64,000 nucleotides of DNA from positions 1 through 64,000 of the IMG/VR virus record IMGVR_UViG_3300012153_000089; one strand, given 5' to 3'. This document shows positions 1 through 8,805 of this stretch, piece after piece. Position numbers and translations under genes: made by a program. This stretch comes from a virus (Duplodnaviria; Heunggongvirae; Uroviricota; Caudoviricetes). Position 1 is the first letter of the stretch. The number at the start of each line of letters is the position of its first letter. A model generated the notes under the pieces. The model made no database searches and was not told where the DNA came from. It saw nothing but the letters and a program-made list of their open reading frames with translations.

Positions 1-1635
1 TTATATATACTTTCTTATATCAAACTCAATCTTTTCTCCCGTGTTTTCTAAGCTATAAGAGCTATCTCCGTCAAATCTTACATCAACAATAGGCTGATTT
101 TTTTCTCCGGTTCTTACTATAAGTTTATCGATCATGTTTAATACTTCTTCTTTTTCATATAACTTCTTAATTTCTTGTTCATTGATTTTTACAATTTTCT
201 CTTCTATTTGTTCTACCTGCTCCATTATGTTTTCATTAGATTGCGAATAGTTTTTGATCTCTTTTTTAGTGTTAACTATTTCTTTCTCTATCTTTTCACT
301 TTCAATGTCTAGTGTTTCTTTTTCAAATACTCCATCTAAATACAACTCTAAAAGTTTTTTCTTCTTGATTTCCAGTGATGATAAAGTACTATTTAAATCT
401 TTACTTTTATCAATATCTTGTTTATCAATTGACTCTACTAATAGATCTCTCTGTTTCTTTAGTGAACTGACCCTTGTCTCTTTATCTTTAACAAACATCT
501 CATAGTAACCGCCGCACTGGAGTGCCTGAAGATAATAATCTATCTCACTATAATTGACATTGGGATTGTCACAAAAATCTCTCCCCTTTGTCTTCTTGGT
601 TTTACAATTATAATACCTTCTTCCCTTATCAATATTGCTTGTATATACAGATCCGCATTTCTCACAGTAAATTAGTCCAGCATACTCAGTTATGCCTTTA
701 TATATCCCCTTTTGAATGATATGATTCACTTTGCTTATTTTGATATTTTGGACAGTCAAAAATAACTCCTTAGAGACAATTGGGGGTATGCGATCTTCTG
801 TGACAATCCATTCCTCTTTGGGTTTAATTGTTGAATATGTTTTCTTGTTAAAAACCACACCAGAATCATATTTATTTCTTGCCAATGTTCCCATGTATTT
901 CTCATTGGAGATCATTCTTTTAATCATTGAAGGAGAAAACTCTTTGTCTTTACGTGTGTAGTATTTTTTATCGTTCAATACATTTATAATTCTTCTTACT
1001 CCTAATCCTTTAGAATATAAGTTGAATATTTCGAGAACTATTTTAGCTTCTTTTTCATTTACGGTTAGTGAATTTGATTTCGGATGATAATCATATCCAA
1101 ACAAATTGCTGGCTCCAAATATCCTACCCCGCTGAGCAGACTCTCTCAGACCGAATCTTACTTTCTTTGATTTATCTATGGAGTCTTGTTGGTCAAAATT
1201 GAGAAATAAATTTAACATAAACTCTTTATCCGAACTATCAAAAAGCAAATCTATGTCTAGAAATTTTACATATACTTTGTTTTTGAGTAGCTCTCTAAGA
1301 ATATCTATAACCATAACGTTCCTTGCAAATCTACTAGTATTCTTAACAAGTATGACATCAAACTTTGGTTGTACACTTTGATCTATTTCGAAAACACTTC
1401 TGCTTTTTGTAACCTTGGTTTCAATTAGTCCAGCATCAGCCAACATTCTGGTAAAATGTTCCCGCTTGGTGAGACTTGTCCCTGTAATTCCTCTGTCAGC
1501 ATAGATATCGACCAATTCCATTGTTTCGCTTCTTCCCACTTCTCGTTCGAAAAATTGCTTTTGATTCTCGAAACTATTCTCTTGGTCTTTTGATGATGTA
1601 CTTACACGGCAATACGCAACTACTCTTTGTTTCAA
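1..1635 (-). CDS. large serine recombinase (phage integrase type)
   Basis: 544 aa. N-terminal resolvase/invertase catalytic domain (VAYCRVSTSSKDQ with catalytic Ser), recombinase domain, Cys-rich zinc ribbon (CEKCG...CKTKKTKGRDFCDNP) and C-terminal coiled coil. Stop codon at window bases 1-3. Confidence 0.9.
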   Translation of the reverse strand: MKQRVVAYCRVSTSSKDQENSFENQKQFFEREVGRSETMELVDIYADRGITGTSLTKREHFTRMLADAGLIETKVTKSRSVFEIDQSVQPKFDVILVKNTSRFARNVMVIDILRELLKNKVYVKFLDIDLLFDSSDKEFMLNLFLNFDQQDSIDKSKKVRFGLRESAQRGRIFGASNLFGYDYHPKSNSLTVNEKEAKIVLEIFNLYSKGLGVRRIINVLNDKKYYTRKDKEFSPSMIKRMISNEKYMGTLARNKYDSGVVFNKKTYSTIKPKEEWIVTEDRIPPIVSKELFLTVQNIKISKVNHIIQKGIYKGITEYAGLIYCEKCGSVYTSNIDKGRRYYNCKTKKTKGRDFCDNPNVNYSEIDYYLQALQCGGYYEMFVKDKETRVSSLKKQRDLLVESIDKQDIDKSKDLNSTLSSLEIKKKKLLELYLDGVFEKETLDIESEKIEKEIVNTKKEIKNYSQSNENIMEQVEQIEEKIVKINEQEIKKLYEKEEVLNMIDKLIVRTGEKNQPIVDVRFDGDSSYSLENTGEKIEFDIRKYI

Positions 1636-5500: not shown

Positions 5501-6445
5501 GTATTCTTGAATTTTTTCTCCTATTCTAACTGTATTGTCGAGAGCTCTTTTGACCACATCATGACTAAGATAGCTTAAACGTTCGTTGATCTCTTCATGA
5601 TTCTGTACAAATGTAGCTTCATAGAAGGCATCAACCTCTCTTTCACCTTCTTTTGCATTAAGGAATGCTTTATGAACGATTCTGTCTTCAGGTCTAAGAT
5701 AATGACTATCTGTTGTAACTATGTATTCAAGCCCAAACTTCTCAGCTAATTTAAGTAATTCCTTATTACAATAAATTTGTTCTTCACTATAAGCGGGTTG
5801 CAGTTCAAGATAAAAATCCTCTTTTCCAAATACATCTAAGCACCAATCTGTAAAGTCACACACTTTTTTATAAGCAACTTTTGCTTTATCTGTTTCCCCA
5901 GCGTCTAGATGGTGCTTCATTTCCAGTAATCCAATACAGTGAGGTGAACCAAGACATGCACTTGAAGCAATTAAATGACCGGGATCTTCATTAATAACTG
6001 ATTTAAGGAAGTCTTTAACTGTAGGAGTCCTTAGCATTGGCCCCGTAAAATATGATTGTCCCCAAGCTACCGAACTCATATATCGAAGCTGCTCATGCCC
6101 AATTTCATCCTTGGCTAAGAGAATGAAATGTGGGAATTTAGTTCGCCCACCAGATTTATAGTTGTCCCTAACTTCTTCAAGGCTATCTACTAGATAGATT
6201 TCATTACCGAGAATGAGCTTAAAGTCTTTATCAATCTTTCCTTTTTCCTTTAGTTTCTCTGTTGCTTGGATTGCTTTTACATGTGACGATACAGATTCAT
6301 GCTCTGTAAATGCCACACCCTTATGCCCCATATCGTGTACTGTTTGGATTAATTCTTCAACTCTGTTGGTGGTGTCCCTGAGCTTAAGATTAGAGCCCCT
6401 ATCGCTATGATTGTGAAGTAGTATCGAATTGCATTGATTACACAA
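2501..6445 (-). CDS. dnaE: DNA polymerase III alpha subunit (DnaE-type replicative polymerase)
   Basis: 1314 aa. N-terminal PHP domain (ILLHNHSDRGSNL...AFTEHESV) followed by polymerase core. TTG start with GGGAGGTG SD. Confidence 0.9.
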   Translation of the reverse strand: MCNQCNSILLHNHSDRGSNLKLRDTTNRVEELIQTVHDMGHKGVAFTEHESVSSHVKAIQATEKLKEKGKIDKDFKLILGNEIYLVDSLEEVRDNYKSGGRTKFPHFILLAKDEIGHEQLRYMSSVAWGQSYFTGPMLRTPTVKDFLKSVINEDPGHLIASSACLGSPHCIGLLEMKHHLDAGETDKAKVAYKKVCDFTDWCLDVFGKEDFYLELQPAYSEEQIYCNKELLKLAEKFGLEYIVTTDSHYLRPEDRIVHKAFLNAKEGEREVDAFYEATFVQNHEEINERLSYLSHDVVKRALDNTVRIGEKIQEYTILKPTVIPKIELPDFQLRGLFRSIYNKYEYINKMAHASNDQDRYIVKLIEDGFYELLPYNTYSKEKLHEVANRIDTELGELWKISENLNQSIASYYITVREIVNVMWDDDCGNSLVGPSRGSAAGYLICFLLGITQINPLEYGIEMPHWRHLTSERPEFPDVDIDTEAAKRNQIFRQLKKYFGENRVLQVCTFGTEASKSAVQTAARGLGVDSDTAMYVSGLIPFERGSNWTLSDCLYGNEEEERKPVKEFVDEINKHENWLQVSMKIEGLINKRSIHASGVIVFNEEYHKTNAMMTAPNGTHVTQLSLEDCEAVSNMKFDLLTIEALDKIRVTMDKLIKNNLMEWQGSIRNTYNKYLHPNVIDIENQRVYDLIGSDSITDLFQFSTEIGIETVKKVKPTNLIELAAANSLMRLLSDHGESPIDTFVKHKNNIDLWYKEMHDYGLNNDEIKIMEKHLLKLNGVADTQESVMLISMDSSIANFDIKSANKLRKSIAKPKQMKKSLQEIKEQFFCDGEALGIRKEILDYVWNVQITRQLSYSFSVLHTLAYSVIALQEANLNINYDPIYWRTACLTVNSASIDDDGEEEDHKSQSTNYGKIAAAIGNMQARGVRIGLPSINKAGFGFEPDIDNDQIIFGLKGINGIGDEVVQSIIKNRPYLNFNDFIERMYKTSAIKKSQVIQLIKAGCFEEYGSRIEIMKDFIALLYTPKTKLNLQNLNAVIENKLIPEGMEKYSKTFNFRKYVMKRVFIKRDKEKFYVLDKVSTPYYYEHFSGEGIVEYSNNFPVIKESTFKKEYDKKMEGIKEWLATEGALEMFNKKMYQNEWNTYADGSISKWEMDSLSFYYTEHELKDIDNERYGITNYGELPEDPVVVGTIESRYGSRPKFKLSTIAGTVLDKDKNKNTVTLLTVDGVVTVKYYDGAFANYNKQVSRPKSDGSKEILEKSWFTRGNKLVLHGYRRGSQFRPYRYKDSNVRHTTMLIDKIDNKGNIKVSQERVKV

Positions 6446-6600
6446 TTGTTTGAAGCACCTCCCATTTCATTTCTTGATCAAATATTAATTTCACATTTTA
6501 TTTTATTATAAACAGCTACACTCTTATCACCTTCTTTAGGTAGTATACTGGTGATTCAACAACATACTACTGGTTCGATACTCGTCACAATCTATGTATA

Positions 6601-6616
6601 GTAGGCCGAAGCCTAC
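6601..6616 (-). other. stable hairpin (GTAGGC-UUCG-GCCUAC on the transcript) immediately 3' of the parR-like stop
   Basis: Perfect 6-bp stem with UUCG tetraloop. No U-tract follows, so it is an RNA-stability or processing hairpin rather than a clear intrinsic terminator. Confidence 0.35.
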
Positions 6617-6617
6617 A

Positions 6618-6899
6618 TTAAAATGATTCGAACAATTCTTCCAACTTTTCCTCATATAGCTCTGTATCCTCTGATTGTTCTTGTTCCGGTTCACTCTGAA
6701 TAATGAATTCAACAGTTCCTTCATTAGTTGGACGGTTCAAATAAGTGTTGTGTGAGTAAGGCGTACTACCAAAGAACAGTAACCTAAGCGCTCTCCTTAC
6801 GACATCGCTCTTATCTTCATGTGGAGGTAGGTTTTTCCAAGCTTCGCGTAGATCTTCATCTTTAATCGGTCTTAATCTTGCTCTTGCCGCTATTTCCAT
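6618..6899 (-). CDS. ParR-like adaptor / small DNA-binding partner of the actin-like ATPase
   Basis: 93 aa, basic N-terminus (MEIAARARLRPIK) and acidic C-terminus. Start overlaps the ParM-like stop by 10 nt, indicating translational coupling. The call rests on position. Confidence 0.4.
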   Translation of the reverse strand: MEIAARARLRPIKDEDLREAWKNLPPHEDKSDVVRRALRLLFFGSTPYSHNTYLNRPTNEGTVEFIIQSEPEQEQSEDTELYEEKLEELFESF

Positions 6900-7834
6900 G
6901 ATTTTTTACCTATCTTCCCGTATCCTCTCACTTGAGCCAACTGATCCATCAAGACTTTGTTAGGTAAATCTAAGTAATCAAAGATATAACGAGCAGCTCC
7001 ACCAGCAATTAAATATATGTCAAATTCCGTATTCAGACTTTCAATTTCATTCTTAATCTGTAAAGCTAAAGATTTAAATGCTCTTCTAATCAAAGGAACA
7101 ATGTTGTGCCCTTGGTATTTACCTGAGATCACGTATGGGTCTAATTCGTAAATTGCAGGAGTATGTCCAGTTAATTTTTGTATGTAAGTTTGCAGTAGTG
7201 TGTAGGCTTTCTCAACCCCAACCAATACACTTTTTGACTCTTTCATTATTGTTGACTTATCAAAACCCAATAAGTTTAGAGTGTAAAACCCCAAGTCTGC
7301 CGTAAGTATTTTTTTCTTTGCTTCTTTTAATCTGATGATCTTTCCATCGTCGTCTAGCAAATAATCCATTGTAATACCCAAACCCTGTGGAACCGTCTTG
7401 CACCTTTCAACGATGGGTTGTACTGGGTAACTCTTCCCTTTACCCTTGCGAATTTTATATTCTCCTTGATCGGCTAAGCCAAGTAGTTTTTCCTCGAATG
7501 GAGCTTTTTGTGTGAAGTAAAAGTTAATGGGTAGCCCACTGACCAAATTCACTTTATCTTTTTTTGCTAAGTATCCCAAAGTGGTCTTCATAACAACATC
7601 GCTAGTTTCGGCTTCAGCCTTTTTGTTGTTTAGTGAGAAGTACTTTATGTCACTGAATTCTAGTGCAACATTCCCCACAAATAGTTCATCATTATAGACG
7701 AAATGATCTGATTTAATATTTTGATCAAACATGTCTTTTGCTTCTCCTACTATTGTGGGCTGACGATAAAATTTTCCGTCTCTTTCTGCTTTGGTCCATT
7801 TAAAACCCAGATCTAAGTTCAGTATATTGCTCAA
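6890..7834 (-). CDS. actin-like segregation ATPase (ParM/Alp/StbA family)
   Basis: 314 aa. Actin-fold motifs LDLGFKWTKA (phosphate 1), ILTADLGFYTLNL (phosphate 2) and IYLIAGGAARYI (adenosine). TTG start with GAGGAGG SD. Confidence 0.75.
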   Translation of the reverse strand: MSNILNLDLGFKWTKAERDGKFYRQPTIVGEAKDMFDQNIKSDHFVYNDELFVGNVALEFSDIKYFSLNNKKAEAETSDVVMKTTLGYLAKKDKVNLVSGLPINFYFTQKAPFEEKLLGLADQGEYKIRKGKGKSYPVQPIVERCKTVPQGLGITMDYLLDDDGKIIRLKEAKKKILTADLGFYTLNLLGFDKSTIMKESKSVLVGVEKAYTLLQTYIQKLTGHTPAIYELDPYVISGKYQGHNIVPLIRRAFKSLALQIKNEIESLNTEFDIYLIAGGAARYIFDYLDLPNKVLMDQLAQVRGYGKIGKKSWK

Positions 7835-7858
7835 AGTGATACAACCTCCTCTAAAGTC

Positions 7859-7907
7859 ATGTACACATTGGTTCCTATCTTAGATAGTTTGGTATATCTG
7901 TGTACAT
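7859..7907 (-). promoter_or_regulatory. nested palindromic site in the parM leader (candidate ParR operator / parC-like site)
   Basis: ATGTACACA (7859-7867) pairs with TGTGTACAT (7899-7907) as perfect 9-bp inverted repeats. They enclose a second palindrome CTATCTtAGATAG (7875-7887). Located 25-73 nt upstream of the parM start, downstream of promoter copy 1. Confidence 0.45.
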
Positions 7908-7927
7908 TTGTAGCCTCTATAAGAATG

Positions 7928-7974
7928 ATTGTATCATCTAATTTTTAATTTGTATAGTGTTATTTTATTATTAT
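7928..7974 (-). promoter_or_regulatory. sigma-A-like promoter (TATACA-17-TGaTACAAT) with conserved upstream element, copy 1
   Basis: Plus-strand AGTGTTATTTTATTATTA at 7957-7974. On the gene strand this element abuts the -35. The extended -10 TGnTACAAT lies at 7928-7936. Confidence 0.5.
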
Positions 7975-8096
7975 ATAAATGAATAATGCTATATTTAACA
8001 CCGACAATAACAATGCCAAATACATAACGAAATATATCTCTATGACACTTTTCAAATACTTCTTCTTGTGAATCTTATTAATTATCCGCTTAAGCA
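7961..8096 (-). CDS. 45-aa peptide, basic N-terminus and hydrophobic C-terminus (possible small membrane or toxin-like peptide)
   Basis: MLKRIINKIHKKKYLKSVIEIYFVMYLALLLSVLNIALFIYIIIK. GGAAGGAG SD 10 nt upstream. The stop overlaps the conserved promoter element. Coordinates approximate. Confidence 0.3.
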
Positions 8097-8133
8097 TGTC
8101 TCACTAGCTCCTTCCTGTAAAATTGATGTTTCA

Positions 8134-8625
8134 TCAGGAATTGCTCTTCATAAAAGCCTTATGTTTCAAGGATAATTCAATTAACCATTCTTCATTGTTG
8201 CATTTTTCTGTTCGTGTATCCAAGGCAAGGTCAATCATTGAACGTATTTGATCTCCATCAAGAACAACATCATCAACTTCCACATCGCAATAGAAATTCA
8301 CATTTTCATGAAACTTACCGGGATTATCGATACTATTCAATTTGTTTTCTATGTATAGTTCTAAGTTTATTTTTGCTTCAGGATATTCTTTCTTAATCAT
8401 ACCAACTGCTTCATGATATGTGAGCCTCCTTAAGTGATCTCCATCAAATTGAAAGTAAAGAATGAAACTATTAAAGTGAAGCCGTCTTAGTATGTAGTCG
8501 TATGTTACAGTTTTCTGATCGAAGATGTATTCTATTTTTAATGGTTTATCTTTAAATGTTGGATAGAATACTCTTAAATGTTTATCAAAAAGCTTAAACA
8601 AATCTTTATCGTTTAGTTTGATCAT
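8134..8625 (-). CDS. hypothetical protein (163 aa)
   Basis: co-directional ORF in the packed early-gene array, no domain recognised. Confidence 0.5.
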   Translation of the reverse strand: MIKLNDKDLFKLFDKHLRVFYPTFKDKPLKIEYIFDQKTVTYDYILRRLHFNSFILYFQFDGDHLRRLTYHEAVGMIKKEYPEAKINLELYIENKLNSIDNPGKFHENVNFYCDVEVDDVVLDGDQIRSMIDLALDTRTEKCNNEEWLIELSLKHKAFMKSNS

Positions 8626-8805
8626 ATGTATTTACCTTCCTATTAATATGGATCGTTCTCGGTCTGGTAATATTCTATGCCGTAGTTTAGCTGCCATTCG
8701 GTCAATTTTACTATGTATTTGTCATACTTCTCTTTGGGAATTATGCCATGTTTGTACTTAAAATTGATTCTGTTTATTGATTAAAAAAGCTCATCTCATG
8801 CTCAC

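Follow-up and report, generated by a model that had tools for sequence, protein, structure and literature searches.

The 64,000-nucleotide (nt) stretch of DNA analysed here, referred to below as the window, comprises positions 1 to 64,000 of the IMG/VR record IMGVR_UViG_3300012153_000089, a virus of the Caudoviricetes. Its minus strand encodes a ParM-family actin-like ATPase (ALP; 6890..7834, 314 amino acids (aa), TTG start), recognised by Pfam, PHROG and fold, together with a 93-aa candidate for a ParR-like adaptor (6618..6899) whose gene overlaps the ALP stop codon by 10 nt. The pair is preceded by a promoter and by a leader with nested inverted repeats, which an initial annotation of the window had taken for a partition-type centromere or operator. 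All features of this cassette were recovered at the coordinates given there, with the minus strand as the coding strand. Comparison with related loci points to another role for the leader, in which the promoter and the ribosome-binding site would form the two strands of one RNA helix.

The actin-like ATPase and its small partner

The 314-aa protein is a ParM/Alp-type actin with intact nucleotide-binding motifs, as the initial annotation had concluded from its phosphate and adenosine motifs; Pfam, PHROG, Foldseek and the pattern of invariant residues agree on this point. The sequence matches Pfam ALP_N (7.6e-18), also MreB-like_C, and the 'partition protein' family PHROG 691 (2e-34). An AlphaFold (AF2) model has a predicted local distance difference test score (pLDDT) of 92.5, and in a Foldseek comparison of this model with the PDB the ParMs rank first and MreB after them. 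The best match is Dh-cParM1 (8x1i, query TM-score (TMq) 0.87), which is the closest of the solved structures in both structure and sequence; further matches are pCBH ParM, pSK41 ParM, CorM, R1 ParM, Alp7A, Alp12 and AlfA. Identity to solved ParMs is only 15–23%. In 23 homologues the phosphate-1 (D8, G10, K15), phosphate-2 (D180, G182, T185) and adenosine (G278, G279) residues are invariant. The assignment itself already stands in public annotation, as 'ParM/StbA family protein'.

On its own, the 93-aa protein matches nothing in Pfam, PHROG or the PDB, and sequence and profile searches with it against the PDB returned nothing relevant. Foldseek with its low-confidence model gave meaningless matches only and was set aside. 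Its anatomy is more informative: residues 1–45 make up a ribbon-helix-helix (RHH)-like N-terminus, the linker after them is disordered, and the C-terminal helix, which is conserved, ends LEELFESF. The AF2 model shows an extended N-terminus, helices at 13–22 and 30–43, disorder at 48–74 and a last helix at 75–92. Family alignments display the same division, with the 45 N-terminal residues nearly invariant, the linker variable and the acidic C-terminal helix conserved and ending LDELFxSF. Weak matches to Pfam RHH_1 were obtained for three of ten family members (best E 0.0066), and the N-terminus is 49% identical to vB_BboS-125 gp18. The order of predicted secondary structure and the pattern of conservation thus suggest a ParR-type adaptor, with an RHH fold weakly supported. 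In ParR, the C-terminal peptide binds ParM (PMC9178275). The overlap between the two genes, which the initial annotation described as translationally coupled, is kept in relatives.

The promoter and the palindromes

The sigma-A promoter that had been proposed upstream of the ALP ribosome-binding site is present. A -35 hexamer, TATACA (7951..7956, minus strand), lies 17 nt before an extended -10 element, TGATACAAT (TGnTACAAT; 7928..7936, minus strand), and transcription is predicted to start near 7921. The -35 is the same non-consensus TATACA in all clades. The combination TATACA-N14-TGNTANAAT occurs a single time in the window, at the ALP gene. It is also present in 25 of 53 fetched loci, some contigs being covered by several of these, with one copy in each and invariably before the ALP gene. 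The Shine-Dalgarno (SD) sequence AGGAGG (7850-7845, minus strand) ends this region, 10 nt before the TTG start.

Directly before its -35, the ALP promoter also carries an upstream element, (A/G)ATAAAATAACA(C/T)T, that it shares with a family of promoters on the minus strand, at 1722, 7969, 18258, 24560, 37440, 43491, 47966 and 56034, most of which have a TTGACx -35. Membership of this family may mean that the ALP genes are co-regulated with those behind the other members.

Between promoter and SD lie the nested palindromes, on the minus strand and with the perfect 9-nt arms and 31-nt spacing originally described. The outer one consists of a 5' arm, ATGTACACA (7899..7907), and a 3' arm, TGTGTACAT (7859..7867), both given on the coding strand; a repeat search recovered the same pair independently. 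The inner palindrome (7875..7887), CTATCTaAGATAG on the coding strand and CTATCTtAGATAG in the orientation in which it was first reported, is centred 2 nt away from the centre of the outer one. A third inverted repeat, 8 nt and perfect (7929-7936 with 7837-7844), had been missed; it encloses both palindromes.

Each palindrome alone is only modestly unusual. When the 77-nt leader was shuffled by dinucleotides, a perfect inverted repeat of at least 9 nt arose in none of 300 trials; mononucleotide shuffling of the 140-nt intergenic region produced one in 3.4% of cases, and 20 of 913 windows taken along the 64-kb sequence (∼2%) contain one. For the inner palindrome the chance frequencies are 0.9% with shuffles and 2.5% with 31-nt windows of the genome. 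The nearest relatives keep the core GTACACA-N31-TGTGTAC and its spacing, and in clade A 77% of the outer-arm cells are paired with no real covariation; the 3' arm drifts among relatives and the 5' arm is fixed. The other clades vary: some have inverted repeats of another sequence, some direct repeats and some no repeat. The inner palindrome is lineage-specific: with 52% of cells paired it equals slid controls, and it is replaced by unrelated sequence even where the ALP is 99% identical. A reading of ATGTACACA as a dispersed operator was rejected, given that copies with at most one mismatch occur 21 times in comparison with ∼20 expected.

Pairing between the promoter and the ribosome-binding site

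RNAalifold was run on eight relatives. Unprompted, it paired the -10 box with the stretch from the SD to the start codon, supported by compensatory changes, and did not pick the palindrome described in the initial annotation. The core of this helix, P1, joins the extended -10 box (7936-7927) to the SD-to-start stretch (7846-7836), and contains the third inverted repeat, in which the -10 box itself pairs with 7844-7837. In its extended form, the 5' strand (7915..7939, minus strand) runs through the -10 box and the predicted transcription start into the first transcribed bases, and the 3' strand (7835..7856, minus strand) takes in AGGAGG and the spacer TTGTATCAC, as far as the base that precedes TTG. 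In most relatives the start codon is included as well.

The pairing was quantified over a 12-pair helix in 26 non-redundant relatives. Standard pairs occupy 93.2% of cells, as opposed to 26–56% when the partner is slid, and the covariation score is 0.328, a value that none of 500 shuffles reached, versus 0.214. The N of TGNTAYAAT, the one position that this consensus leaves free, forms A-U in 9 relatives, G-C in 9, C-G in 3, U-A in 1 and G·U in 2, and the Y forms U-A in 15, C-G in 6 and U·G in 5, with no mismatch. At the same time, seven positions of the TGnTAnAAT box (T5, G6, T8, A9, A11, A12 and T13) are invariant in 26 of 26 relatives, beyond what pairing alone requires. Of the cells that are not Watson–Crick pairs, G·U read in the sense strand accounts for 32 and A·C for only 3. 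A symmetric protein-binding site or a cruciform would treat both alike; the bias therefore identifies the constraint as pairing of RNA in the mRNA sense, and excludes DNA symmetry and antisense RNA as explanations of P1.

Folding calculations place this helix at the base of a larger structure. The segment 7940..7831 has a minimum free energy of -30.6 kcal/mol (z -4.2), and folds from the -10 box to the start codon are rod-like hairpins whose z averages -4.1 across 31 loci. Leader-only folds give z values of -1.9 to +1.1, no more stable than shuffles, and a free-standing leader riboswitch or hairpin was rejected on this ground. In the window, the P1 3' strand spans the whole SD and spacer, and the outer (P2) and inner (P3) palindromes form the next two tiers of the hairpin. 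The predicted unpaired probability of the translation initiation region (TIR) is 0.10 in the long transcript versus 0.46 in the short one; over the loci the corresponding values are 0.15 and 0.44, and 29 of 29 loci agree in direction. When the 22 extended -10-like sites of the window were all scanned, the ALP promoter was the only one with a complement beside an SD. Rfam gave no match over 6400-8700.

A model for translational gating

The arrangement suggests how the cassette might distinguish its own transcripts from those of its neighbours. In a hairpin of ∼105 nt, the basal helix P1 would set the -10 box and the first transcribed bases against the SD, the spacer and, mostly, the start codon. 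Read-through transcripts from upstream genes would carry both strands of P1, and their ribosome-binding site would be sequestered. Transcripts from the cassette's own promoter would begin within the 5' strand and could be translated. Co-oriented open reading frames (ORFs) end near the -35, mostly no more than ∼120 nt upstream, across 31 loci. No terminator-like site was found within 300 nt upstream of the ALP gene in 30 of these 31 loci, nor, in the window, between a 45-aa ORF and the ALP gene; read-through transcripts should therefore hide the ribosome site. This co-oriented 45-aa ORF (7960..8097, minus strand) ends 4 nt before the ALP -35, and together with the 163-aa gene upstream of it (8134-8625, minus strand) it is the likely source of transcripts that run into the ALP gene. 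Such a device may serve to keep read-through away from a filament system that is dosage-sensitive and probably autoregulated.

The product of the 45-aa ORF is hydrophobic and its gene has a good SD; at locus L043 a 42-aa gene has been called at the same place.

The best overall explanation of the locus, which we regard as reasonably probable as a whole, is that it is a self-contained cassette resembling type II partition systems, made up of a promoter and the genes for a ParM-family actin and for a ParR-like adaptor coupled to it in translation, and that the palindrome forms the upper part (P2 and P3) of a conserved, covarying translational gate in which the promoter lies within the hairpin. 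The gate is a known principle in a new setting. In bacteriophage T4, the ribosome-binding sites of genes e (lysozyme), soc, 49 and I-TevI pair with an upstream segment in long read-through transcripts, and a promoter in the DNA for the 5' strand yields transcripts that lack that strand and are translated (PMC3014915). The ALP leader shares, by our calculations, the pairing of the SD and start with an upstream segment and, by sequence, a promoter in the DNA for the 5' strand. It differs from the T4 cases in that the -10 box itself pairs, that this box belongs to a sigma-A-type extended -10 promoter rather than a T4 late promoter, and that the loop, of ∼85 nt, contains further helices. What would be gated here is a partition-type actin with its adaptor, carried by a temperate Gram-positive phage, and the gate is a prediction from sequence.

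We know of no partition-type system with a promoter-in-hairpin gate. If the model holds, a single sequence serves as -10 box and as anti-SD strand, a conclusion resting on unusually clean covariation, and keeps a dosage-sensitive filament system out of reach of read-through; the same design rule might find use in synthetic operons, and inverted repeats between promoter and ribosome site in partition cassettes should not be called centromeres by default.

Several observations weigh against this explanation. The transcription start, the read-through transcripts and the effect on translation are all inferred from sequence; the filament function, and any contact of the adaptor with the TGTA/TACA-rich DNA of the leader, are likewise inferred. 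The promoter and SD consensus sequences by themselves impose some of the pairing, through a U·G that is invariant and through arms rich in A/T, which pair readily, and the release of the TIR on removal of the 5' strand is partly true by construction. P1 is absent at one locus, L037. The ALP genes of vB_BboS-125 and SPO1 have no such arrangement: no complementarity between promoter and TIR is visible there, and there is no comparable leader. The RHH assignment of the adaptor is weak. Finally, P2 does not covary and is missing from several clades; its own role could therefore differ from that of P1, for example as an operator.

The leader as a binding site for the adaptor

That last possibility is close to the initial annotation, in which dimers of the 93-aa RHH adaptor would bind the palindrome as a DNA operator or centromere, for autorepression and filament attachment. 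As an explanation of the palindrome we consider it unlikely, though by no means negligible, and it could coexist with the RNA gate. The leader is indeed rich in candidate sites. In the leaders the density of TGTA/TACA words is 4.4-fold that of the loci. A separate count in 24 leader interiors gave 81 observed versus 16.9 ± 4 expected, and the ALP leader is their densest cluster in the window, although this enrichment follows in part from complementarity to the -10 box. Each outer arm contains a self-complementary TGTACA, and a TGTAnTACA-type palindrome occurs at a fixed place after the -10 box even in distant clades, conserved by sequence and not by covariation; at L010, L012 and L015, however, the words stand in direct rather than inverted orientation. 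The drift of the 3' arm beside a fixed 5' arm, and the lack of conservation of the inner palindrome, likewise count against this reading.

The N-terminal domain of the adaptor is equally conserved, and the non-consensus -35 found throughout the clades also speaks for this reading. ParR-type adaptors normally autoregulate from sites at their own promoter, as in ParMRC. The alpS site of the Corynebacterium glutamicum prophage CGP3 offers a parallel (PMC4446434). A parC-type centromere in particular, the form in which the site was first described, is not supported by the leader: it holds no iteron array and no direct repeat, the inner palindrome is not conserved, and the outer palindrome is nested in a covarying RNA helix. 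Searches for direct-repeat families and tandem repeats found none in either intergenic region flanking the cassette. Taken on its own, binding of the adaptor to the TGTACA words, with autoregulation, is plausible, and the words may serve this purpose within a leader that would also form the gate.

The 3' boundary of the cassette

A second structured element closes the cassette. Directly after the adaptor stop codon stands a hairpin, GTAGGC-TTCG-GCCTAC (6593..6616, minus strand), followed by the heptamer ATACATA. The hairpin is present in 30 of 30 non-redundant relatives regardless of which gene comes next, its stems covary, and ATACATA follows within 0–5 nt. Since it lacks a T-run, it is not a canonical terminator.

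Two conserved hairpins flanking a pair of genes are also what one might expect of RNA processing. In such an account the leader hairpin would be a site for RNase III or another endonuclease that separates the upstream mRNA from the ALP mRNA, or else a stabiliser of the mRNA. A rod of ∼35 bp is a plausible substrate for a double-strand RNase, and early mRNAs of Bacillus phages are processed at intergenic hairpins. Processing gives no reason for the exact match of the 5' strand to an invariant extended -10 whose -35 stands at 17 bp, or for the exact match, in every clade, of the 3' strand to the SD-to-start segment; we consider this account quite improbable.

The translational gate, combined with the 3' element, raises a broader idea, to which we give slightly less than an even chance: the cassette may be a portable module with its own translational insulator. 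The -10 box would double as the strand opposed to the ribosome-binding site, protein would be made behind any operon only from transcripts of the cassette's own promoter, which is probably autoregulated by the adaptor, and the hairpin with ATACATA would mark the 3' edge.

ATACATA is an oriented signal in its own right. On the coding strand it is the commonest heptamer of the whole window, with 78 copies versus 5 on the other strand and ∼13 expected; examples on the minus strand lie at 6599, 8631, 9833, 17461 and 27012. Copies occur in all three reading frames and in non-coding DNA, with no flanking signal and a median spacing of 577 nt. The skew recurs in relatives (99 versus 6 in 88 kb) and in SPbeta (17 versus 2 in 17.9 kb). 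A reading of ATACATA as a -35 with a fixed -10 partner was rejected, as no offset is preferred.

Genomic setting and biological role

The host of the cassette is an integrated SPbeta-like Paenibacillus prophage, and the cassette sits in the replication module, directly upstream of a YorL-type DNA polymerase gene. The product of this gene, 3' of the cassette, is 55% identical to the SPbeta YorL polymerase, and the window further encodes ribonucleotide reductase, thymidylate synthase, ligase, RecJ-like, DnaB-like, Y-family polymerase, RecU and sigma-factor proteins. The serine integrase named in the initial annotation is present as a large serine recombinase (1..1635, minus strand; domains Resolvase, Recombinase and Zn_ribbon_recom) at the very edge of the window.

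Homologues of the ALP come nearly all from Paenibacillus, many of them from within complete chromosomes of 6–8.5 Mb. At the homologous loci the small overlapping gene is always present, a gene for the alpha subunit of DNA polymerase III (Pol III) usually lies just downstream, and the upstream neighbours vary. An adaptor identical over all 93 aa was found on a 1.73-Mb contig. Megablast of the locus against phage records gave no match, and a scan of metagenomes added only five loci. In 127 Bacillus-type phage records there are more distant ALP genes that a small gene overlaps; among these records is the strictly lytic SPO1, whose pair gp27.9/gp27.8 sits among replication genes.

This distribution bears on the episomal, plasmid-prophage phase that the initial annotation had put first. 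A partition system by which the phage persists outside the chromosome as a plasmid prophage would suit proteins from the family of type II plasmid partition systems, and Bacillus is known to have plasmid prophages that carry partition genes (PMC8026635). Close relatives, however, lie inside complete 6–8.5 Mb chromosomes; the identical adaptor is on the 1.73-Mb contig; the element carries a serine integrase and an SPbeta-like replication module; and homologous pairs belong to strictly lytic SPO1-like phages, so that plasmid maintenance appears very improbable. The second proposal made there, a role in positioning or segregating replicating phage DNA, is better supported, because relatives occupy complete chromosomes and replication modules and homologues occur in lytic SPO1.

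Prophage CGP3 provides an analogy. AlpC, its actin-like protein, and AlpA, the adaptor, are both needed for efficient replication and positioning of phage DNA after induction (PMC4446434), the replication defect in CGP3 being roughly two-fold, and by this analogy the ALP filaments would most likely move or position replicating phage genomes once the prophage is induced. A widespread family, with dozens of members in Paenibacillus prophages and relatives in Bacillus phages such as SPO1, would then join the few phage-borne actin cytoskeletons, and be placed in the replication module.

Comparison with other actin-based systems

The cassette and CGP3 AlpAC are alike in that an integrated prophage encodes both an actin-like protein and an adaptor. 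For CGP3 the operon is given as alpA-alpC, which suggests that the adaptor gene comes first, whereas it is second here; alpS consists of TTAAnnG repeats, and no RNA gate has been described for CGP3. With the ParMRC systems of R1, pSK41 and pCBH, the cassette shares the ParM fold, a small adaptor gene directly downstream and a C-terminal helix like the ParM-binding tail of ParR (PMC9178275), but it lacks an iteron centromere and belongs to a chromosomal prophage rather than a plasmid. Dh-cParM1 is itself chromosomal and has an RHH-type partner (PMC12270681). The paper on the cParM/cParR systems (Dh-cParM1 and Cb-cParM) does not mention phages or prophages (PMC12270681), while the ALP genes stand in a clear prophage replication module.

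The uncharacterised pairs gp27.9/gp27.8 of SPO1 and gp17/gp18 of vB_BboS-125 share the gene order and the same overlap, with an ALP identity of only 28–43%. Gp18 of vB_BboS-125 aligns with the N-terminus of the adaptor, and SPO1 gp27.8 shares a C-terminal LDxxL motif. SPO1 gp27.8 (141 aa; L002 5013-5438) has no overall similarity to the 93-aa protein; its similar acidic end, LDKALDN, and the same overlap with the ALP gene suggest that it is an analogous adaptor.

Three further observations concern the surroundings of the cassette. The serine recombinase gene lies downstream of those for RecU and the polymerase, and may mark the end of the prophage. In relatives L005–L009, L011, L015 and L042, a gene for an AAA+ ATPase of ∼320 aa (domains AAA and AAA_lid_6), which the window lacks, stands between the adaptor and Pol III alpha genes. 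At L004, from Paenibacillus sp. NPDC057886, the ALP is 99% identical to that of the window, the adaptor only 85%, and the promoter and leader are far more diverged, with one P1 pair broken; this pattern of divergence suggests recombination within the cassette.

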